A stretch of DNA of 64,000 bases from Eubacteriales bacterium. Its GTDB lineage: Bacteria > Bacillota > Clostridia > Oscillospirales > CAG-272. Made by a program: the position numbers and the translations under genes. Numbering within the stretch: the stretch's first letter is position 1; every line of letters starts with the position of its first letter. Under the pieces are notes generated by a model. The model did no database searches, was not told where the DNA came from, and saw only the letters and a program-made list of their open reading frames with translations. Positions 3,055 to 53,552 of the stretch are shown one piece after another. Location of the stretch: positions 981 through 64,980 of the forward strand of contig JAZQJB010000042.1 in assembly GCA_045541375.1 (NCBI GenBank). The letters run 5' to 3'.

Positions 3055-3171
3055 ATGTCGGTGATTGATAGCGTCAAGGAAGATGCGCGCAACAGTCTCC
3101 ACCGCGCCAAATCCGAAAAAAACAAAGGCAAGACGCAGTTGCCGGCGTTTAATCGGGTTTGGCACGGATAA
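3055..3171 (+). CDS. Unannotated small ORF, 38 aa (MSVIDSVKEDARNSLHRAKSEKNKGKTQLPAFNRVWHG)
   Basis: GGGAGG at 3043-3048 lies 6 nt before the ATG. The ORF ends 10 nt before a strong intrinsic terminator (3181..3217). It is below the ORF-track size cutoff. Confidence 0.4.
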   Translation: MSVIDSVKEDARNSLHRAKSEKNKGKTQLPAFNRVWHG

Positions 3172-4950: not shown

Positions 4951-5042
4951 GGGTGAGGAAACTGCATTAATTGCTTTTGGCAAAGGGTTGTTATTTGTTT
5001 GATTTGCAAAATGGAGTTTGGGATAAACATATAATTAATCAA

Positions 5043-5653
5043 CTTTTGGAAGATTTTCTCGCTGCGCTCGAAAAACGGTATCTTATTAAAACGCCTCATT
5101 CGTCACGCTCACGCGTGCCACCTTCCCCCACCGGGGAAGGCTGCTTAATTGGTCGATAACCTTTAACTTTTCAGCGAACATCATTTACTGCTATAATTCT
5201 ATTTAGGCAAATAGGAATAATTTATTTGATTAATTTTGTGCTCGTAATAGAGTCGTTGCAAACATTTTCAAATAATATTCCACTTTGATATGTAAAATTA
5301 TGTTGCTAAATCAGCTTTGATGAATATTCATCGATTATTGACACACTTCGTCGAGTTTGACTGTCTTTAGTCGAAAAGTGGAGACATTCAGCCGACAAGC
5401 AAGCCCTGCTGTGTTGAGTGCGAACATCGAATATAGAGATAGAGAAATCAAGTAAATAAGAACTGTGCAAGTTATTTAATGCTTTTTATACTTATGAACA
5501 AAAGTGCATTATTGCACTTAACGAAATTCAGAAAATTTGAGCGTTACTAACAGTCAGCCTTCCCCGGTGGGGGAAGGGGGACCACGAAGTGGGGAATGAG
5601 GCGTTTTGATAAGATACTGTTTTTCGAGCGTAGCGAGAAAATCTTCCAAAAGG
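5043..5653 (+). repeat. Large hairpin-forming intergenic element, copy 1 (with ~250-nt extra insert)
   Basis: ~100-nt imperfect inverted arms at 5043-5143 and 5555-5653. Conserved core at 5213-5281. Confidence 0.8.
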
Positions 5654-5780
5654 TAATTTCACTAAAGCTGCTATAAAAATTCATTTTGCCGAGCAATAGC
5701 TTGTTAGATATTTTGAAATTCAGCCAACTCTCCCCCCCTCTAAGTCAACCATTGTTGACATTCGCGTTTAGGGTTTTTTC

Positions 5781-5848: not shown

Positions 5849-7066
5849 ATGAAAAAGAAGAAAAAGGATACGAAATGGCGAAAGTGGCGGCATTTGGTCG
5901 TTCGAAATATCGCTTACTGCATCCTCAGACCCTACGTTCATTTCAAGTATGGCATCAAGATAGAAAGATATAAGGAGCAGGAAAAACGTCCCTACCTCAT
6001 TCTGCTCAACCATCAGACGCCCTTTGATCAGTTCTTCGTCGGAATGACTCTGCGCGGCACCGTTTACTATATGGCGACCGAGGACATTTTCTCGAACGGC
6101 TGGATCTCGAAGGTCATCAAGTACCTCGTCGCGCCGATCCCGATCAAAAAACAGACCACCGACATCCGCGCGATACTGAATTGCCTGAAGGTGGCAAAGG
6201 AGGGCGGCTCGATCGCCATCGCGCCCGAGGGCAACCGCACATACAGCGGACGCACCGAATATATGAACCCCTCGATCGTCTCGCTCGCGCGCAAGCTCGG
6301 AATGCCCATCCTGCTTTACCGCATCGAGGGCGGCTACGGAAGCGAGCCGCGCTGGAGCGACGTTGTGCGCAAGGGTAAGATGCGCGTTTACTGCGCGCGT
6401 ACCGTTCAGCCCGAGGAATACGCGGGTATGACCGATGACGAGCTCTTTGCCGTCATCCGCGACACGCTCTACGTCGATGAGGCTTGCGAGGATTTTGAGT
6501 ATAAGCACAAAAAACTTGCCGAATACCTCGAGCGAGCGATCTACTATTGCCCCTTCTGCGGACTTTCCGAATTCGAAAGCAACGGCGATATAATTAAATG
6601 TAAGAAATGCGGCAGGGAGATACGTTATCTGCCCTCGAAAAAGCTCGAGGGCGTGGGATTTGACTTCCCGCACGAGTACGTTGCGGGCTGGTATGACGCG
6701 CAAAAGGACTTTATGAACTCGCTCGACGTCACCGCTTACGGCTCGGACGTCATCTACACCGACCGCGCGCGCATCTCGGAGGTCATCGTTTACGACCGCA
6801 AGGTCCCGCTTTGCAAGGATGCCGAGATCACCCTTTGCGGCGACAGGATCGCCGCCCGCGGAGAGGGTATCGATCTTGAATTCCCCTTCGACGAGGCGAC
6901 TGCCGTCACAGTTCTTGGCAAAAACAAGGCGAACATATACCACGGCGGCAAGATCTATCAGCTCAAGGGCGGCAAACGTTTCAACGCTCTGAAATACGTC
7001 CATATCTATCACAGATACAAAAACATAATTAAAGGAGACGAAAATGAGCAATTTTTGGGACTTTAG
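5849..7066 (+). CDS. Lysophospholipid (1-acyl-sn-glycerol-3-phosphate) acyltransferase family protein with a C-terminal Cys-rich extension
   Basis: NHQTPFDQ (HX4D-like) and IAPEGNR acyltransferase motifs. ATG at 5849 follows GGAGG. A perfect promoter lies at 5781..5809. Confidence 0.8.
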   Translation: MKKKKKDTKWRKWRHLVVRNIAYCILRPYVHFKYGIKIERYKEQEKRPYLILLNHQTPFDQFFVGMTLRGTVYYMATEDIFSNGWISKVIKYLVAPIPIKKQTTDIRAILNCLKVAKEGGSIAIAPEGNRTYSGRTEYMNPSIVSLARKLGMPILLYRIEGGYGSEPRWSDVVRKGKMRVYCARTVQPEEYAGMTDDELFAVIRDTLYVDEACEDFEYKHKKLAEYLERAIYYCPFCGLSEFESNGDIIKCKKCGREIRYLPSKKLEGVGFDFPHEYVAGWYDAQKDFMNSLDVTAYGSDVIYTDRARISEVIVYDRKVPLCKDAEITLCGDRIAARGEGIDLEFPFDEATAVTVLGKNKANIYHGGKIYQLKGGKRFNALKYVHIYHRYKNIIKGDENEQFLGL

Positions 7067-8429: not shown

Positions 8430-9025
8430 TAAAAAATCTGATTTTTGACTGCTCGGACACGCTTTTGCGCTTCGGCGGGCTCGATTGGCTGCGCGAAGAA
8501 GTCGGCGAGGAGCGCGCGCTCCACATCCACCGCACGATGTTTCTGCTCCCCGAGTGGGTGCTGTTTGACAGGGGCGAGGTTGACGCCGAGACGGTGAAAG
8601 AAAAACTCTGCGCCGCGCTTGGCGAGGATGACCGCGAGATTGGCCTGACGTATTTCGACACCTGGTACCGCAAGCACAGGGTGATCGAGGGCATTCCCGA
8701 GGTTCTCTCGGAGCTGAAGGCGAAGGGATATAAGCTGTATATTCTTTCGGATTATCCCGAGTGTTTTGAGCACGTTTGGGAGAGCTTTGAGCTTTTCGAT
8801 ATGTTTGACGGCAGGGCGGTATCCTACGAGCTTCACGCGCGCAAGCGTGAGAGCACGGCGTTTCCGCTTTTGATGGAAAGATACGGTCTTTGCGCGGAGG
8901 AGTGCTTCTTTGCCGACGATCTCTACCTCAACACCGACGCCGCCACCGAGTGCGGCCTTACGGCGCACCTGTTTACGACGGCGGAAAAGTTACGTGAAGA
9001 TCTCACCAGACTTGGAATTTTATAA
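8426..9025 (+). CDS. HAD-superfamily hydrolase
   Basis: N-terminal IFDCSDTLL (DxD-type motif I) and a C-terminal FFADD motif. ATGA start/stop overlap with the upstream gene. Confidence 0.75.
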   Translation: MIKNLIFDCSDTLLRFGGLDWLREEVGEERALHIHRTMFLLPEWVLFDRGEVDAETVKEKLCAALGEDDREIGLTYFDTWYRKHRVIEGIPEVLSELKAKGYKLYILSDYPECFEHVWESFELFDMFDGRAVSYELHARKRESTAFPLLMERYGLCAEECFFADDLYLNTDAATECGLTAHLFTTAEKLREDLTRLGIL

Positions 9026-9028
9026 GAT

Positions 9029-9062
9029 AAAAGCTGATCCACTCACGTGGATCAGCTTTTTA
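9029..9062. terminator. Bidirectional intrinsic terminator after the HAD gene
   Basis: AAGCTGATCCAC-TCAC-GTGGATCAGCTT flanked by A and T runs. Confidence 0.8.
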
Positions 9063-9077
9063 TTGCCAGCAACAGCG

Positions 9078-9470
9078 AGAAGTTTTGATCGAACTTTTTC
9101 AAAAGTTCGCGGAGTATGAGGCGGAGCCTCATTTCAATGCGAGAGCTTCAGCTCTCGCTTCCGTGCTTCAAACAGGTGAAGCTCTGCTTCTCCTGTTTGG
9201 ACAGAGTCAATACTTCCCGATTGTAGGGAAGTATTGACTCTGTCACCCTTTGTCGAATAGAATTCAGAAAAATAAAGCGAAGGAGCAAAAATCTCCCCTA
9301 AAGGGAAGATTTTACTCCTTCAAAACCGTCGGCAGGGGCGCCGCCGGTTTTAAGCGCAAGGGGAGAGTTTCGCCCTCTGTGGAGGGCGACTTAAGGCGCT
9401 GCCTTAAGAATTCGCCGTTTGCCGAAGGCAAACATACTTTTCTGAAAAAGGTTGACCAAAACTTTCCGCT
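9078..9470. repeat. Multi-hairpin structured element, copy A
   Basis: ~150-nt core at 9080-9232 is homologous to the reverse complement of 25756-25909. Contains a chain of hairpins including a perfect 19-bp stem at 9200-9244. Confidence 0.75.
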
Positions 9471-9550
9471 ATTTTCTGAATAATATTCAAGTCCTTCGTC
9501 AATAATAAATTCAAGCGGCGTTACATATCGCAAAAAGAAGGACAAATAAA

Positions 9551-10213
9551 ATGAAAACTCCTACACATCCCGCGCGTGGTTTCCGCGCCGCGGCTTTCAT
9601 CACCTGCGCCGCTATCCTCGTCTCTCTCATTCTTCTGCTCGCCGCTTCGCTGAAATTCGAGAGTTTCGACACAGACCCCGTCTATGCAAGCGTTTTCCGC
9701 CTCCATATCCGCGCAAATTCGAATAGCGAAGAAGATCAGGCAACCAAGCTCGCCGTCCGCGATGCACTTCTGCCTTTCACCTCGGAGCTTTTCGCCGACT
9801 GCAATGGTCTTCCCGACGCCGTAAAGATCGCAAAAAACGAAAGCGGAGCAATCGTTTCGCACATCAATTCCACTCTTTCCGCCCTCGGTGCCGATTACGG
9901 CGCGCGGATCTCTGTCGGCAAAGAGGAATTTCCCGAGCGTAATTACGGCGGGGAAGTCTATCCCGCGGGCGAATACACCGCGCTGATCGTCGAGCTCGGT
10001 GAAGGCGAGGGCGATAATTGGTGGTGCGTGCTCTTTCCCTCTCTCTGCCTTTCCGCTGTCCGCGGTGAGGAGGAATCGATCGAAGCAAGTCTGACCCCCG
10101 AGCAATACCGCACCATAACCGAATCGGGCGAAAGAGAAGCCCCCGCCCCCGCGCCCAAACACCCCCTCAAATTCCGCTTTTTGGAGCTCATCGAGGAGCT
10201 TTTGTCACGATAA
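9551..10213 (+). CDS. spoIIR: Stage II sporulation protein R
   Basis: FRLHIRANSNSEEDQ...VRDA...GEGEGDNWWCVLFPSLC is the SpoIIR signature. Confidence 0.85.
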   Translation: MKTPTHPARGFRAAAFITCAAILVSLILLLAASLKFESFDTDPVYASVFRLHIRANSNSEEDQATKLAVRDALLPFTSELFADCNGLPDAVKIAKNESGAIVSHINSTLSALGADYGARISVGKEEFPERNYGGEVYPAGEYTALIVELGEGEGDNWWCVLFPSLCLSAVRGEEESIEASLTPEQYRTITESGEREAPAPAPKHPLKFRFLELIEELLSR

Positions 10214-10958: not shown

Positions 10959-10990
10959 AAATGAAGCGGCTGAAATCAGCCGCTTTATTT

Positions 10991-12923: not shown

Positions 12924-12988
12924 GGGGTTTAAGAAAAATTTAATAAACGGGGGCTTATTTGACATAGATGCTATTTGAGCTAACCGAT

Positions 12989-13312
12989 AGTTGCGCGGGC
13001 TCCTTCCACCACTTCCGTGGTCCCCCTCCCTCCCGGAGGGAGGCTAAAGGGTGCGAGCAACCTTCATTGTTTGTGCAGCGAATCTTGCTCAAATTAATAA
13101 TTTTGCATACAAAAAAGGAATATTTTATTTGAATCAATTTGCACTCGTAACAGAGTTCTTGCAAACTTTTTCAATAAAATATTCCTTGTTGCTGTTTAAG
13201 GTTTAAGTTAAAACAATATTCGCTGAATATCCGAAGGAGTATGCACTAATCAATCAGCCTTCCTCCGGGAGGAAGGGGGACCGCGGAAGCGGTGAAAGGA
13301 GAGCGCGCAACT
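12989..13312 (+). repeat. Large hairpin-forming intergenic element, copy 2
   Basis: 57-nt inverted arms at 12989-13045 and 13256-13312. Conserved core at 13116-13175. Confidence 0.8.
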
Positions 13313-13384
13313 TCATTTTATCACGAATTACATCAAGGGTGGTGCGTTTTCTGTCAGTATAAGATTCAAAATGAGTCATCCTCA

Positions 13385-13921
13385 TTAAGTTTTATTCGCA
13401 AAATCCTTCAGCTTGCCGCTGTAGACGTGGTTGGCGTTGGGAAGAGTGAGGAAGAGCATCGGTTCGACGATGTCGGCGAGCTCGCGGGCTTCGCGGATGC
13501 CGTTTCGGACGAGCATTTCCTTGACGAATTCGGAGCAATAATAGGAATTCGCCTGCCTGTAATGGATATTCGCGCCTGCAAGGAAGAGCCCGAGGTAATT
13601 ATAGTGGTATCGCTTTTTGTTCTTTGCCATACCCTCAAGCATCTGCCCGAGGTTGATATACTGCCCCTCTGAAACCGCGATCGAAAGCACCTCGACCTTC
13701 GTGCCCGAAAAGCGCTTGAAGGTGCCGTAATTCGGGGACTCGGTGACGAATCCGCCGTGGAAGGGGTTGTAGGGGTTGGTCCTGCCGAAGGAGTACATTG
13801 TTGAAAGGTCGGATTCAAGACTGATCGAGGCGTGATTATATTTCGCGCCCGTGATAAATTTGAGTATGCGCGACAAAGCCGTGCCCGTCTGGCTGATAAC
13901 GATATAAATTGTCTTGGACAT
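13385..13921 (-). CDS. Permuted papain-like (YiiX/NlpC-P60-related) protein
   Basis: His-before-Cys arrangement (KYNHASIS ... SYYCSEFV). AAAGGAG RBS. The family assignment is tentative. Confidence 0.5.
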   Translation of the reverse strand: MSKTIYIVISQTGTALSRILKFITGAKYNHASISLESDLSTMYSFGRTNPYNPFHGGFVTESPNYGTFKRFSGTKVEVLSIAVSEGQYINLGQMLEGMAKNKKRYHYNYLGLFLAGANIHYRQANSYYCSEFVKEMLVRNGIREARELADIVEPMLFLTLPNANHVYSGKLKDFANKT

Positions 13922-14234
13922 TTTCGCGACTCCTTTCGGTAATTTTACATTAATAGTATATCACATAATATCTAACGGACGGTTAAGTAAATTAAAATAT
14001 ATTTGAATTAATATTGGTTTTCACCATATTAAGCTCTGGCTCTCACTAAACAATTATTAATTGCACCGAACCGGACACCTTCACGTATATTATTATACTG
14101 CATTTATTTACCAATATCAATAGTTTTTCAAAAATGGTAAATAGATTTTTATCAGCTTGATTCAAAACATAAAATCACGAGAGGTATCTGCGAGTTTTCA
14201 TTACGAGCTGCAAATATTATTATAAATCAATATA

Positions 14235-14437
14235 ATATTACGCTGTCATCCTGAGCGGAGCGAAGCGGAGTCGAAGGACCTCGGCGTAGCCGGGCTAACT
14301 ATGAGGTCTGCTATGAATTATATCAATGTGAATTATTTGGGATCATATTGATACCATTCAAATCGGATTCCATAATTGACCCGCTGCGCGAGGTCCTTCG
14401 ACTCCGCTTCGCTCCGCTCAGGATGACAGCGTAATAT
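14235..14437. repeat. Perfect 49-bp inverted repeat separated by 105 bp
   Basis: ATATTACGCTGTCATCCTGAGCGGAGCGAAGCGGAGTCGAAGGACCTCG (14235-14283) and its exact complement (14389-14437). Confidence 0.85.
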
Positions 14438-14490
14438 AATTGTTGTTAAAAAAGTAATTCTTATCTCGTAATGTATTTTTTCGGATATTG

Positions 14491-14525
14491 AAAAAATAAT
14501 GGGGCTGCCTCAATGAAGCAACCCC
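14491..14525 (-). terminator. Terminator of the MBOAT/DHHW operon
   Basis: GGGGCTGC...GCAACCCC stem with a T-run on the minus strand. Confidence 0.65.
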
Positions 14526-14532
14526 TGAAATT

Positions 14533-15657
14533 TTATTTCAGCTCAGAGCTGTTATTGAGAATGAGGGTGCTATACAGGAAGAGCACGTCTGCGTTCTCGA
14601 AGTTGACGCCCATCAGAAGGATCTGGGGGATCTGGTAACGGATGTCGATGATGGTGATCTTGGCGTAGTCCTCGACCATAAGGGGAAGAAGGCTTCTGCC
14701 GTAGGAATCACGGAAGACGACGAGCTCGCGGTCGGTCTTTGCGTTCGGGTTCTCGATGGTAACCTTCGAAAGCTCGCCCGAGAGGAACATGTCGTATGCG
14801 TCCTTGCCGTGTGCCTTTTCCATATCGTAAAGGCTGATCTCCTTGCCGCCGTGCTCCCAGTCGGTGACCTTGACGTTCTCAAGGTTGCCGTTTGTGAGGT
14901 AGTAAATGGTCTCGGCATCGAGGGGCTTGGGTGCGCGGCCTGCGTAAACGCCGTAGAAGTCTACGTCGAGTTCTTTCTTCTCGAACTTCGAGTCATAATT
15001 GCCGCCCATTGCGTTTACAAGGATCTCCGCGATCTTGACAAGCTGCTCTTGGCGCCAGTGTGTGTCGCTTGCGTAGTAGTCGCCAACCTCAAGGCTGTCC
15101 TTGATGTTGATGTACTCCATAAACTCAACGCTTGCGAGCATCTCTGCAATGAAGGCGTCGTAGTCCATCGAAAGGTAGCCGTTAGCCTCGGAAAGGAAGT
15201 AGCCCTTGTCGGGGATGATCGCCATATAGGGCTTGATGCCCTTATCCTTGAGGAACTTCTCATAAACGAAGGTCAGCTTTTCAGCTGCGTGAGCGATCGA
15301 ATCCTTGTCGATCTGCTCCTGCATCTCTGCCGCAACGCCGTCAACGACGTAAACGCCGTCCTTGTCGGACTTATTGAATACGTTGGTGTTGACAAAGGAC
15401 TTGAGATTACGGAAGAAATCGCGGAAGGGGAAGTTATCGGGGGTGTATTTGTCGTCGAACTGCTTCATAAAGCTGTCGCCGTATTCAAGGCCATCCTTCA
15501 TAATGCTCTCAAGGTTGAGAGTGGGGAAGGCTGCGGCGGGGCGGCGCTCGCTGTCAAGGAACTCGGGCTTCGGAAGAACGAGGCAAAGCAGAGCAAAACC
15601 GAAGACGGCAACACAGAAAACAACGACGTTTACTATATTCTTGATCTTAGTATTCAT
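14533..15657 (-). CDS. DHHW/AlgJ-AlgX-like SGNH-type O-acetyltransferase partner protein
   Basis: N-terminal anchor and the ASDTHW motif. Located immediately downstream of the MBOAT gene. Confidence 0.75.
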   Translation of the reverse strand: MNTKIKNIVNVVVFCVAVFGFALLCLVLPKPEFLDSERRPAAAFPTLNLESIMKDGLEYGDSFMKQFDDKYTPDNFPFRDFFRNLKSFVNTNVFNKSDKDGVYVVDGVAAEMQEQIDKDSIAHAAEKLTFVYEKFLKDKGIKPYMAIIPDKGYFLSEANGYLSMDYDAFIAEMLASVEFMEYINIKDSLEVGDYYASDTHWRQEQLVKIAEILVNAMGGNYDSKFEKKELDVDFYGVYAGRAPKPLDAETIYYLTNGNLENVKVTDWEHGGKEISLYDMEKAHGKDAYDMFLSGELSKVTIENPNAKTDRELVVFRDSYGRSLLPLMVEDYAKITIIDIRYQIPQILLMGVNFENADVLFLYSTLILNNSSELK

Positions 15658-18987: not shown

Positions 18988-19267
18988 ATTTGCCTCCAAT
19001 GCCCTACACCTATATACACAACAAAATTTTCGTTTGGTTGCATGGTTTCGGAAATTTTTTTGATTTTTTCGAAAAAAATTATAAAAAACACATTTTCGTC
19101 GCATCAACTTCTATTATACCATATTTTTCCGACGGAAATCAATAATAAATTGCTTTTTATATGTTACAAAACAGTGTAGGGAGGTGTAGATTGATTGATA
19201 AAAATAAAATGTATCCCAAAAACGAGAGCTTAAAATATGATATTGCTATGAGTACGCTTGTCGTTTA

Positions 19268-19635
19268 TGCAGTACAGACTCCGCCACCCCTCATTCGTCG
19301 CTTCGCGCCACCTTCTCCCAAGATCCGGGAGAAGGCGAAAAGTTTGTGCTATCCGCTTGTTTGTACAGCGAATGATATTCATTACAATAATTCAGTTAGT
19401 CAAAGAGGAATATTTTTATATAAATAATTTCGCGCTCGTAATAGAATTTTTGCAAACTATTTCAATAAATTATTCCTATTTGACCAACAAACGTTTTTAT
19501 CCTAAACGGTGTTCGCTGAAACGCAAAGAAGAGCGAACCAAACTAACTGTTCGCCGGAGGCGAACTATGCCTTCTCCCGGATCTTGGGAGAAGGTGGCGC
19601 GAAGCGACGAATGAGGGGTGGCGGAGTCTGTACTG
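19268..19635 (+). repeat. Large hairpin-forming intergenic element, copy 3 (perfect 67-bp terminal inverted repeats)
   Basis: 19268-19334 is the exact reverse complement of 19569-19635. Conserved core at 19405-19475. Confidence 0.85.
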
Positions 19636-19725
19636 CACATCAGACAAACATTTGCATTAAATTATCACCTTATATCTGACGCACTCCCTTACGGTCGAGT
19701 AGAAATTGCCGGTTTACTTCAATCA

Positions 19726-19761
19726 TAAAAAACCGCCCGCACTCGGAAGTAAGTGCGGGCG
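19726..19761 (-). terminator. Terminator after the M23 peptidase gene
   Basis: CGCCCGCACT/AGTGCGGGCG stem with a T-run on the minus strand. Confidence 0.8.
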
Positions 19762-19768
19762 ATTGTGG

Positions 19769-21957: not shown

Positions 21958-23640
21958 TTAATCAATCGAATATGTAAATGCATTTCTGCCCGATTTCAGG
22001 GCGAAATCAATCGTGTAGCAAGGCGCGGAGCCGGCAAAGGTGTGCATTTCAATAGCAACCGACTCAACAGCGTCGGCATCGTAGGTCAGAAGAGAATCAA
22101 GAATGGCGATCTTGCCGCTTTCGATCTCCTTCGGCTCGCGAATGCAAACGACTCGCTCAACGATCTCCCCGCCGCCGCTGTAATCAAAGCGGTCGGTGAC
22201 GGATGCGCTCGTTTCGGTGAAGGAGAATCGGCGCTCGATCGAGGAAAGTTCCTCGATCCCGTAGGCGGGAGCTATGTCGAGGACGAATTCATCGCCGTCA
22301 ACGCGAACATCGCGCGCACAATATTCCTTGCCTGGCTTCTGTCCCTCGCCGCCGATGATGGGCAGGCTGTGTCCGTCGGATCGGGTGTGGAAGAAGGTGT
22401 AACGCTTCGAGCCGAAATAATCCTTGCAGTATTTGCCCGTGCCCGGGTCGGCAAGGACCTGGACGCCGTTCTTGGCGAAGATGAAGGAGCCGACGTCGTT
22501 ATGATTGTGGGGCTCGTTGTTGTGTCCACCCTTCGCCGCAAAGCCGTAGGCGGGCGTTTTCTTGATGTACCACTGCGCGCCCTCGGCAAAGAAAGCGCAT
22601 CTGTCGTCGGGAAGCGCATCGGTGTCATATTCCTCGCGATACCAAAGTGCGGTGCGGAGATGCAAACAGAAGCGGGCGCAACCGTCGTAGGTATATGACA
22701 AACTGCGGTCATAAACTGCAACGTCATCGGGATAGACCGATTTCAGATAGTGCACAAGTCCGATCTGGTAGGCGAGCGAGGTACCCGAATCGGCAAAGCT
22801 GATCGAAGTGCGTCCCGAAAGGAACATTTTTTGAATGTATGTCGCAATCGCGCGCACCTTCGGGCGGGTGAAATAGTCGAGCTCACCGCCGGTGAATTTT
22901 TTGACCAGATCGGCGTAAACGGTGAAAAATCCGAAGCCGTAATGCCAATATCCGCTGCCCTCAACGCAAAATCCATCGTCGGCAAAGCCGCGAAGATAGC
23001 TCTCCATCGTGTCGGAAATGCGATCGCGGAGCTCGTCGAATCGCTCGGGATGCATCAGCATAACCGCACCGCAGACCGATCCCGCGCAAACAGCCGCCCA
23101 GTTGTTCGTGCATCTCTCCCACCAAAGCTTGTTGAGCTTGGTGGCATAGGGCTCAATGATGCGGCGGTCGATCTCCGCTTCAATGCGTGAGGCAACAAGC
23201 GGATCGAGACGATCCTTGAGCATTGTATAAATTTCCGCCAAAGCAAAGCCCGTTTCGGCGGCAAAAAGGTCGACCATAAGGCTCCCCACGTTATTTGCCT
23301 GACCGTAATGCGCCGGCAAGCACCAAGTATACTCGTTGCAAACGGCGAAAAGCACGTCCTGCAGATAATCCAAATACTTTTCCTCTTCGGGATAGATCAG
23401 CGAAAGGAAGGTGCAGGCGTTCATCCGCAAGCGGCGGTTGAAGTAAACGGATTCATATTCGCTGCGGCTTCCCGTGTCAAAATAGATCTTGAAAAGACCG
23501 TAAGTCAGCTCGGGAATCTCGCGACCCTCGCAGAGATTTTGATAAAGTCGAAGATTGTCCTCACGAAAGCGGGCATAGCAGTCCTTCTCGCGAACCTCCG
23601 CCCAAAATTCTTTGTCACAAGCGCGTCCAAGTAAGCTCAT
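21958..23640 (-). CDS. Heparinase II/III-like family protein, no signal peptide
   Basis: HNHNDVGSF motif. ATG at 23640 follows GGGAGG. The ORF-track extension to 23841 runs antisense through the tRNA-Arg gene and is spurious. Confidence 0.75.
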   Translation of the reverse strand: MSLLGRACDKEFWAEVREKDCYARFREDNLRLYQNLCEGREIPELTYGLFKIYFDTGSRSEYESVYFNRRLRMNACTFLSLIYPEEEKYLDYLQDVLFAVCNEYTWCLPAHYGQANNVGSLMVDLFAAETGFALAEIYTMLKDRLDPLVASRIEAEIDRRIIEPYATKLNKLWWERCTNNWAAVCAGSVCGAVMLMHPERFDELRDRISDTMESYLRGFADDGFCVEGSGYWHYGFGFFTVYADLVKKFTGGELDYFTRPKVRAIATYIQKMFLSGRTSISFADSGTSLAYQIGLVHYLKSVYPDDVAVYDRSLSYTYDGCARFCLHLRTALWYREEYDTDALPDDRCAFFAEGAQWYIKKTPAYGFAAKGGHNNEPHNHNDVGSFIFAKNGVQVLADPGTGKYCKDYFGSKRYTFFHTRSDGHSLPIIGGEGQKPGKEYCARDVRVDGDEFVLDIAPAYGIEELSSIERRFSFTETSASVTDRFDYSGGGEIVERVVCIREPKEIESGKIAILDSLLTYDADAVESVAIEMHTFAGSAPCYTIDFALKSGRNAFTYSID

Positions 23641-23716
23641 AATGCGCCTCCCAAATATATTTTCTTCATTATATAATAATATGGGCAAAAAGTCAAGCAC
23701 CGCGACAAAAAAAGAC

Positions 23717-23745
23717 TTGACTTTTCCTCCCCCGCGATGTATAAT
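23717..23745 (+). promoter_or_regulatory. Promoter TTGACT-N17-TATAAT dedicated to tRNA-Arg
   Basis: The -10 hexamer ends 10 nt before the first tRNA nucleotide. Confidence 0.75.
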
Positions 23746-23755
23746 AATAACACAT

Positions 23756-23832
23756 CTGCCCGTGGCACAGCTGGATAGCGCGTCAGACCCCGACTCTGAA
23801 GGACGCAGGTTCGAATCCTGTTGGGCAGGCCA
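23756..23832 (+). tRNA. tRNA-Arg (anticodon CCG) with an atypical C at position 33
   Basis: Cloverleaf folded by eye: acceptor CTGCCCG/TGGGCAG, D-loop AGCTGGATA, anticodon stem TCAGA/TCTGA with loop CCCCGAC, T-arm GCAGG-TTCGAAT-CCTGT, encoded CCA. It has its own promoter and terminator. Confidence 0.8.
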
Positions 23833-23875
23833 AAAAGACACGAAGGGGACAAAGTCCCCTTCGTGTCTTTTTGTT
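23833..23875 (+). terminator. Strong terminator directly after tRNA-Arg
   Basis: 17-bp stem AAAAGACACGAAGGGGA/TCCCCTTCGTGTCTTTT followed by a T-run. Confidence 0.85.
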
Positions 23876-25565: not shown

Positions 25566-25918
25566 TTGACATCCCCGCGTTTCTTGCGAATATTGAGGAA
25601 GAGTGCCTTTATCGGATAGATTTGTTTGAGAGGTATTGATATGTTTGCGCCCTTCGGGCGGGGGGTGACAGGAGCGCGTACTTGCCTTCGGCAAGTTGCA
25701 ACTCTTGCTTGTCGGCTCCCGCCTCCATTTTCCTTCGGAAAACCGCAAGAGCTGCACTTCCCTACATTCGGGAAGGACTGACTCTGTCCAAAATCGAGAA
25801 GCAGAGCTTCACGATTTTGAAGCACGGAGGCGAGAGCTGAAGCTCTCGCATTAGTCCGAGGCTCTGCCTCGTGCTCCGCGAACTTTTGAAAAAGTTCGAT
25901 CAAAACTTTCCGCTTTTT
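25566..25918. repeat. Multi-hairpin structured element, copy B (opposite orientation to copy A)
   Basis: Core at 25756-25909. Possible promoter TTGACA-N17-AATATT at 25566-25594. Confidence 0.75.
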
Positions 25919-52930: not shown

Positions 52931-53019
52931 TGGCGGAGAGAAAGGGATTCGAACCCTTGTGGGCGTGAGCCCAAACGGTTTTCAAGACCGCCTCGTTATG
53001 ACCACTTCGATATCTCTCC
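52931..53019 (-). tRNA. tRNA-Ser (anticodon UGA), long variable arm, CCA encoded
   Basis: Reverse complement reads GGAGAGATATCGAAGTGGTCATAACGAGGCGGTCTTGAAAACCGT...GGTTCGAATCCCTTTCTCTCCGCCA. Confidence 0.9.
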
Positions 53020-53170: not shown

Positions 53171-53525
53171 GGCAACTCTGCCGGACGGCCGCGCGGTATT
53201 GTGCCGAAAGGTATTACCGTGAGGAAAGTCCGGGCTTCGCAGGGCAGGATAGCTGATAACGTCAGCCGCAGGTGACTGCCGGGAAAGTGCAACAGAAATA
53301 AACCGCCCGCGCAAGCGGGTAAGGATGGAAAGGCGAGGTAAGAGCTCACCAGTTCCTATGGTAACATAGGTCCGCTGTAAACCCTATCCGAAGCAACACC
53401 GTATGGGAGTCGTTTGCCCGACACATACTCCCGGGTGGCACGGGGAAACCCCGGAGCTGTATGGCGACATACAGCAAAGACAGATGGTCGTCCACGACAG
53501 AACCCGGCTTACAGGCAGAGTTGCA
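53171..53525 (+). ncRNA. rnpB: RNase P RNA, bacterial type A-like
   Basis: GAGGAAAGTCCGGGC, ACAGAAATAAACCGCC, GGTAAGAGCTCACC and ACAGAACCCGGCTTA conserved blocks. P1 stem GGCAACTCTGCC/GGCAGAGTTGC. Perfect promoter at 53137..53165. Confidence 0.92.
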
Positions 53526-53552
53526 TATATTGAATAATAAGGAGAAAGATTT

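Follow-up and report, generated by a model that had tools for sequence, protein, structure and literature searches.

The large palindrome at positions 19268-19637 of the analyzed window (the whole 64-kb stretch of DNA, to which all coordinates refer unless a contig is named) is probably one copy of a non-autonomous, mosaic family of palindromic repeats, which resemble REPIN, BIME and Correia elements and occupy terminator slots. The hairpin of this copy, referred to here as copy 3, is most likely selfish repeat DNA and not a structured RNA gene. The family was detected at approximately 19 insertion sites in at least eight species-level MAGs of Clostridia/Eubacteriales, and its spread corresponds to a clade of uncultured gut Clostridia.

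Copies of the repeat in the window

The window represents a housekeeping chromosomal region of a spore-forming member of the Clostridia (SpoIIR, RNase J, RNase P RNA and CoaX are encoded there). The RNase P RNA is of class A (252 bits; 53173-53527), and two tRNA genes are located at 52934-53019 (minus strand) and 23756-23829 (plus strand). The latter is overlapped by an ORF on the minus strand (21958-23841), whose true start is therefore probably located further downstream.

The core pattern of the family (CTCGTAAYAGANNNNTTGCAAAC) has exactly three matches in the window, against 0.06 expected by chance even when up to three mismatches are allowed, and a profile search revealed no fourth copy. 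The shared core of about 65 nt described in the first-pass annotation is thereby confirmed as a nearly invariant segment of approximately 70 nt, as is the inner stem CAGCGAA/TTCGCTG, a pair kept across 18 copies. The two further copies which that annotation had placed at 5043-5653 and 12989-13312 exist and have the same orientation, but their true extents are larger (~5037-5658 and ~12948-13384). All three copies lie 5′ of operons, namely those encoding sigma/MBOAT/DHHW and GntR-ABC proteins and the coaX/acyltransferase pair.

Copy 1 (5037-5658; plus strand), a member of the third subfamily, is located between the divergent coaX and acyltransferase genes. Its arms (5037-5143 and 5555-5658) are complementary at 93 of 104 positions, and it contains, besides the core (5213-5281), an additional module of ~270 nt in its interior (5290-5550). 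The orthologue of this copy, L006, is found in MAG RGIG1801. Copy 2 (12948-13384; plus strand) belongs to the main subfamily and abuts the stop codon of a 178-aa gene at position 13385. It carries GC-rich arms (~12993-13044 and 13257-13307) and a core at ~13116-13186, and its arms match at 77 of 98 positions.

The perfect inverted repeat of copy 3 is 69 nt long (19268-19336 versus 19569-19637). The inverted repeat reported previously is therefore real, but its 67-bp arms (19268-19334 and 19569-19635) had been drawn 2 nt out of register. Outside the perfect repeat, weaker complementarity continues to 19231/19674 (85% over 106 nt), with matches at 21 of the next 40 outer positions. When folded as single-stranded DNA, the 444-nt element reaches -140.7 kcal/mol, compared with -47.6 +/- 4.1 for shuffled sequences (z = -23). 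The left and right arms each hold a local hairpin of the form CCTTCTCCC-N7-GGGAGAAGG (19311-19335 and 19570-19594, respectively), and equivalent arm hairpins are present in copy 1 (5121-5140 and 5558-5577) and copy 2 (13025-13043 and 13258-13276). The idea that these hairpins are free-standing REP units was rejected, since within the window they were found solely inside the three copies.

The central segment between the arms of copy 3 (19337-19568; plus strand) includes the conserved AT-rich core (AGGAATA...CTCGTAATAGA...TTGCAAAC...TATTCC; 19405-19475; plus strand) and a small nested REP-like hairpin, GTTCGCC-TCC-GGCGAAC (19549-19565). A comparison of gapped and ungapped matches revealed that this nested hairpin is missing at the corresponding position in L020 and L044. 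The whole inserted block spans 19181-19724 (~544 nt; the block, its arms and the nested hairpin are unstranded), and the insertion immediately follows the T-run of an ordinary intrinsic terminator, that of the M23 peptidase gene (19731-19764; minus strand).

The absence of a nearby transposase or reverse transcriptase gene, claimed in the first-pass annotation, was also supported: no Pfam match to a transposase, recombinase or reverse transcriptase was obtained for the 40 predicted window genes scanned (about a dozen smaller or weaker genes were excluded from this set).

Distribution and structure of the family

A scan of a collection of species-representative genomes with the core pattern identified 13 loci, of which 12 are true copies (the match in L011 is a chance one); one of the copy-bearing MAGs originates from goat cecum. 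The same scan of metagenome contigs added a single true copy (L015), while two other matches (L014 and L016) were dismissed as chance. Profile searches and strain look-ups revealed second copies in L009 and L010, as well as new copies in L020/L026 and L030. The core pattern had no match in viral contigs, and BLAST searches with copy 2 against plasmid records and with copy 3 against phage records returned nothing. The contigs of the same species that are compared below were obtained by exact-protein look-ups, which yielded no records for coaX, the ABC ATPase, the 461-aa protein and the sigma ORF of 224 aa. No published description of this repeat family was found in the literature searched. Many contigs (L027-L029, L034-L039, L001, L004, L010 and L015) terminate within a family copy or at its border. 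Since such repeats break short-read assemblies, copy numbers in MAGs are underestimated.

The elements are palindromic and 430-620 bp long, with a conserved centre of ~160-400 nt. Alignment assigned the three copies of the window to three different subfamilies. In the main subfamily, elements from different species are ~88-92% identical over their full length, arms included; part of the apparent contrast between core conservation and arm variability thus reflects sampling, since the window copies are drawn from three subfamilies.

The layout of the elements is nested and consists of (i) an outermost G-rich stem, flanked by an A-tract and, on the opposite side, a T-tract, (ii) AT-rich outer modules, of which at least four interchangeable types exist, (iii) GC-rich arms inside these modules, each with two or three short local hairpins, and (iv) an AT-rich centre, bounded by CAGCGAA and TTCGCTG, which contains the almost invariant core hairpin of ~70 nt. 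Two pairs of subfamily end motifs were distinguished, TGCAGTACAGACTCC...GGAGTCTGTACTGCA and GGGGCTGRCTCATT...AATGAGYCAGCCCC. Across copies, conservation is strongest in the centre and weaker at the ends, a pattern not usual among transposons and one that would allow for a function encoded by the core.

Genomic location and terminator-like ends

The elements are intergenic, and in most cases they immediately follow a stop codon, at the position normally taken by a terminator. The ends of the main subfamily (A-run-GGGGCTGRCTCATT...AATGAGYCAGCCCC-T-run) start 0-17 nt past stop codons in 11 cases. In L008, where the element is located between convergent genes, this spacing holds on both of its sides. 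In L002 (~3082-3095) an alpha-L-rhamnosidase gene reads into the element end (GGGCTCATTTAAC), which contains its stop codon, so that the last codons and the stop are supplied by the element.

Hairpins with a GGCTG-type stem occur three times in the whole 64 kb. Their scarcity indicates that the ends are borne by the element and do not represent a general terminator of the genome. In allelic comparisons the outer A/T-tract stems replace ordinary terminators, yet the "loop" that they enclose is about 400 nt long and some of the stems are degenerate. The ends, judged by their sequence, resemble a bidirectional intrinsic terminator and may function as such.

Copies were found in convergent, divergent and co-directional contexts, with the core facing either way, as established from flanking genes confirmed by Pfam. 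With orientation this arbitrary, a strand-specific role in cis-regulation or as a leader is less likely.

Gain and loss of copies between strains

Of 18 other contigs of the same species, 11 lack copy 3 and 7 carry it. The M23-to-sigma intergenic region is 240 nt long in the 11 empty contigs and ~761-783 nt long in the window and in five fully spanning contigs; two further filled contigs begin inside the element. The edges of the inserted block were defined by aligning the filled alleles of the window and L020 with the empty alleles of L017-L025: the common flank stops at ...GTGTAGG (19180) and restarts near ATAAAAAACCGCC (19725). No target-site duplication (TSD) was detected in this comparison. 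The outer ~40 nt of the block contain no inverted repeat and are not clearly common to other copies, for which reason copy 3 might have arrived by allelic replacement and not by transposition. The first-pass annotation had favored selection on structure "rather than recent copying"; this is not supported in the case of copy 3, which is a DNA segment gained or lost between strains.

A second filled/empty pair was identified downstream of rpe. In the window, a 22-nt terminator hairpin (AAGCGGCTGA-AA-TCAGCCGCTT; 10964-10985; plus strand), accompanied by a T-run, directly follows the rpe stop codon, and in L030 exactly this slot holds a 445-nt copy of the family. Again, no TSD was visible when L030 and the window were compared. 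We also considered insertion into the loop of an existing terminator, which was rejected: several bases distinguish the stem of the filled allele from that of the empty one, with flanks that are 98% identical. In some strains the slot of copy 2 is occupied by a small hairpin almost identical to that of rpe, together with another palindromic repeat. At both of these slots the alternative allele is the near-identical small hairpin AAGCGGCTGA...GCCGCTT, and there is no clean empty site. The small terminator hairpins AAGCGGCTGAAATCAGCCGCTT and AAGCGGCTGATTGAGCCGCTT are located at 10964-10985 of the window and at ~1028-1050 of L033. Such a hairpin may represent a target of the large elements, a footprint left by them or an unrelated repeat.

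Four alleles of the intergenic region at 13921-14533 were distinguished between strains: (i) a plain terminator, (ii) four tandem REP-like hairpins, (iii) a different palindrome, which is the allele of the window, and (iv) a family copy. The palindrome of the window (14199-14473) has 85-nt arms that are 82% complementary (GTCATCCTGAGCGGAGCGAAGCGGAGTCGAAGGACCTCG...). Its relatives are found in the copy 2 slot of L033 and at the start of L005, and its end motif, TGCAGTACAGAC, is common to subfamily 2. In L027 and L019 the corresponding site is an intergenic region of ~100 nt with a plain terminator. The four tandem short hairpins, forming a REP-like array, are present in L017 (7883-8082) and L021; each of them is preceded by AATGATAATC (e.g. 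GTTCGCCCTTCGGGCGAA). Hairpins of the array type (GTTCGCC-N-GGCGAAC) are also nested in copy 3 (19549-19565) and in the copy of L026.

Another intergenic region of the window (9025-9551; 525 nt) contains several short GC hairpins, including those at 9139-9158 (GCGAGAGC-TTCA-GCTCTCGC) and 9370-9389; the hairpin at 9274-9323 gave weak, generic Rfam matches. A near-identical hairpin is located at 25830-25849, and a segment of L003 (7257-7344) matches 9272-9359. These hairpins probably constitute another small repeat family.

Contig L003 (SGB_645), which represents a different species, carries at 6100-6480 a family copy of another subfamily, also located upstream of a sigma-factor operon. This contig and the window are 83% identical over 4.5 kb of synteny, which breaks beyond the family copy. 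The L003 copy may mark either an insertion hot spot or an old element that has been replaced. In one strain contig (L019) an rve-type integrase gene (134-1303; HTH_32/rve/rve_3) adjoins the M23 peptidase gene, at a place where other strains carry a DGOK kinase gene.

Inversion of the central segment

The segment 19268-19637 of the window matches L048 in the reversed orientation (98.9% identity over 370 nt, ungapped), with collinear flanks on both sides. Compared with the window, all seven other filled contigs carry the centre of copy 3 the other way round, with the core pointing toward the sigma operon, giving an orientation ratio of 7:1 among assemblies. The minority orientation, seen in the window only, could be an assembly artefact if a k-mer shorter than 69 was used, and assemblies cannot always be trusted to show which way the centre faces. 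A comparison of different copies also points to inversion. The outer modules occur in both orders relative to the core (A-C/C-A, A-B/B-A and D-B/B-D), and arm haplotypes travel with the centre in some copies and with the outer module in others. These variable partners of the arm haplotypes indicate that the inversion breakpoints vary and that flipping is repeated, which is expected of homologous recombination between the arms and not of a site-specific invertase.

The arms are perfect or nearly perfect within L007, L009a, L010a and copy 3, yet different between these copies. In L004 (~6440-6560) a mirrored 5-nt insertion is present in both halves of the core stem (GGAATATTTTATTTTATTTGAA ... 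TTCAATAAAATAAAATATTCC), which suggests copying between palindrome halves. For the perfect arms of copy 3, recombination or gene conversion between arms is the better explanation. Homologous recombination combined with gene conversion would flip the centre and at the same time keep the two arms alike, and would account for the perfect 69-nt repeat.

The occurrence of the copy 3 centre in both orientations at one locus could also be attributed to an inverton family, in which the arms are sites for a master invertase encoded elsewhere, comparable to Mpi of Bacteroides fragilis, and a promoter located in the centre switches the adjacent operon. The location of all three window copies 5′ of operons and the core facing the sigma operon in all seven other filled contigs are consistent with such a switch. 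So is a -10-like box (NATAAT) which lies upstream of the core at a constant spacing in 16 of 18 copies, with c1 scoring 10/12 with a TG extension. We nevertheless regard this explanation as unlikely. Many copies are located between convergent genes, which would leave a promoter without a target, and sigma-70 promoter scans over the three copies yielded no more sites than expected from shuffled sequences and none within the invariant core. The breakpoints differ between pairs of copies, as in homologous recombination, the 7:1 orientation among assemblies is not a mixed one, and no invertase was found in the window. Moreover, the sigma operon retains a promoter (TTGATT-N18-TATAAT) downstream of the insertion site, and most strains do without the element.

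The conserved core and the arm hairpins

RNAalifold, applied to 18 centres, predicted the core hairpin alone (21 pairs). A double change was found in 1 of these 21 pairs and the covariation term was +0.33. With covariation nearly nil, the conservation of the core lies in its sequence and adds no support for structure. The first-pass annotation had implied an RNA-like structure under selection, to be tested by covariation in a larger alignment; in such an alignment (18 centres) the core essentially lacks it. Together with the arbitrary orientation of the elements, the flipping centre and the variability of copies between strains, this result leaves that reading unsupported.

The observation that the arm hairpins stay paired while their sequence changes was, on the other hand, confirmed and extended, with at least five stem haplotypes for each of two hairpins. 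Sixteen arm variants were folded, and each of them retains two to three local hairpins. The first arm hairpin occurs as ACCGC/GCGGT, ACCAC/GTGGT, ACCGTCG/CGACGGT and CACGC/GCGTG, and the second as CCTTCCTC, CCTCCCTC, CCTTCCCC, CCTTCTCCC, as well as in shorter forms. In palindromic DNA such pairing holds on both strands. It is equally expected of hairpins used in single-stranded DNA mobilization, or of template-switch correction of quasi-palindromes.

These hairpin haplotypes, the very stable folding of the whole element and of the core (z = -23 and z = -4.3, respectively) and the near-invariance of the core across subfamilies would also be in accordance with a family of structured non-coding RNA genes, in which a protein partner would recognize the conserved apical loop of a long hairpin, with selection acting on the RNA structure. 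A T-rich stretch follows the core hairpin and could, along with the -10-like box, bound a transcript of ~95 nt. Such an origin of the elements seems to us quite improbable, given the covariation result and the fact that most strains lack a copy at a given site. Copies are oriented arbitrarily relative to genes, a DNA palindrome folds equally on both strands, and the flipping of the centre relative to the arms leaves no single strand with a fixed structure of the whole element. In addition, an Rfam search of the copies produced no match at the gathering threshold, as the earlier claim of no resemblance to a named RNA had anticipated. The sole match at an E-value threshold was to MIR7533, a generic long hairpin, with 79 bits versus the 230-bit threshold.

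There is a similarly small chance that the invariant core is itself a unit borne by the element, i.e. a small RNA of ~95 nt (with the -10-like box, the hairpin and a U-rich tail) or a site in cis at which a protein or recombinase docks, which would make the family a mobile, flippable cassette. If this were true, the cassette would plant a terminator-like module and an orientation-dependent promoter or sRNA beside genes, and would constitute a transposable inverton, or an RNA-dependent mobile repeat without a described counterpart in Firmicutes. A new kind of molecular machine is not indicated on present evidence. A small ORF in the core was considered and rejected: the candidates with a TTG start (13-39 aa) differ between subfamilies, and there is an in-frame stop in copy 3.

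Comparison with known repeat families

The interpretation that we consider probable, a family of non-autonomous palindromic repeats, may be compared with several known systems. REPINs are inverted pairs of short GC-rich hairpins which together form one long hairpin, present in dozens of intergenic copies, often after genes. REPINs and REP sequences are mobilized by RAYTs, Y1 HUH transposases similar to those of IS200/IS605, without a transposase in cis and without TSDs; the RAYT gene is present once per genome, with the repeats on its flanks. The elements described here are likewise inverted hairpins within a larger hairpin, whose structure is kept while the stem sequence drifts, and they are located in intergenic regions after genes, with neither a cis-encoded transposase nor a TSD. 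They differ from REPINs in their length (430-620 bp versus roughly 70-150 bp) and in having, in place of a short spacer, a long AT-rich centre with an invariant core, which is the best conserved part, and no 5′ motif of the GTAG type was noted. No RAYT (Y1 transposase) gene was present among the genes scanned in the 64-kb window.

BIMEs, including those of the IHF-binding RIP/RIB type, are enterobacterial mosaics composed of inverted GC-rich palindromic units and interchangeable motifs. They have a conserved central motif between the inverted units, are located at the 3′ ends of genes, and have been proposed to act as terminators or mRNA stabilizers. The mosaic outer modules and the conserved centre of the elements analyzed in this study are similar to this arrangement; the differences are that these elements come from another phylum, are much larger and have no known core-binding protein.

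Correia elements of Neisseria and ERIC/IRU sequences of enterobacteria (both ~100-155 bp) are imperfect palindromes of transcribed intergenic regions, variable between strains, which can serve as terminators or promoters; the Correia elements have a conserved central site and 26-bp terminal repeats, and generate a TA duplication. The elements described here differ in their length of 430-620 bp and in the absence of a duplication at the filled/empty pairs.

Invertons are invertible promoters flanked by inverted repeats, e.g. the Mpi-dependent family of Bacteroides and the cwpV and flgB switches of C. difficile. They share with our elements a segment that occurs in both orientations between inverted repeats, and both are dispersed families in which the repeats are similar and the interior is conserved. 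The arms of our elements are, in contrast, 50-100 nt long and imperfect in many copies, with variable breakpoints; many copies lie between convergent genes, the promoter signal is not above chance, and no invertase was found in the window. Of the features that define invertons, the two orientations are present, while a recombinase (within the window) and a fixed crossover site are absent.

The family is multi-copy, non-coding and polymorphic in its insertions, as a MITE is, but the classical test for a MITE fails because there is no TSD. An ordinary cut-and-paste MITE, derived from a known IS family and mobilized by a cognate transposase encoded elsewhere in the genome, is the least probable of the explanations considered and very doubtful, since its short, protein-less, strain-polymorphic copies, the recognizable subfamily ends and the rve-type integrase gene of L019 are set against the absence of a TSD at two filled/empty pairs, an inserted copy 3 block that reaches beyond the inverted repeat and has non-repeated ends, ends that are less conserved than the centre, mosaic outer modules, and the lack, among the loci examined, of any full-length element or IS with these ends (the solo ends belong to other palindromic repeats).

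The family of palindromic repeats would instead spread in trans, through an enzyme encoded elsewhere that requires the hairpin-forming ends and the core. By analogy, the REPIN-RAYT (REP) and IS200/IS605 systems, which handle hairpins of single-stranded DNA and leave no duplication, may serve as a model of this mobilization. The terminator-like ends would make insertion after genes nearly neutral.

Implications for gut Clostridia

The described family explains the large intergenic hairpins in MAGs of uncultured gut Clostridia, which may otherwise be mistaken for RNA genes, as well as the frequent contig breaks at such sites in these MAGs. It is an analogue, in Firmicutes, of the REPIN, BIME and Correia repeats, with an unusual layout that combines a conserved centre, variable hairpin arms and terminator-like ends. 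Within 10 kb, several intergenic slots swap between plain terminators, small REP-like hairpins and large palindromes among the strains of one species, which makes this region a good natural system for the study of repeat movement and palindrome maintenance.
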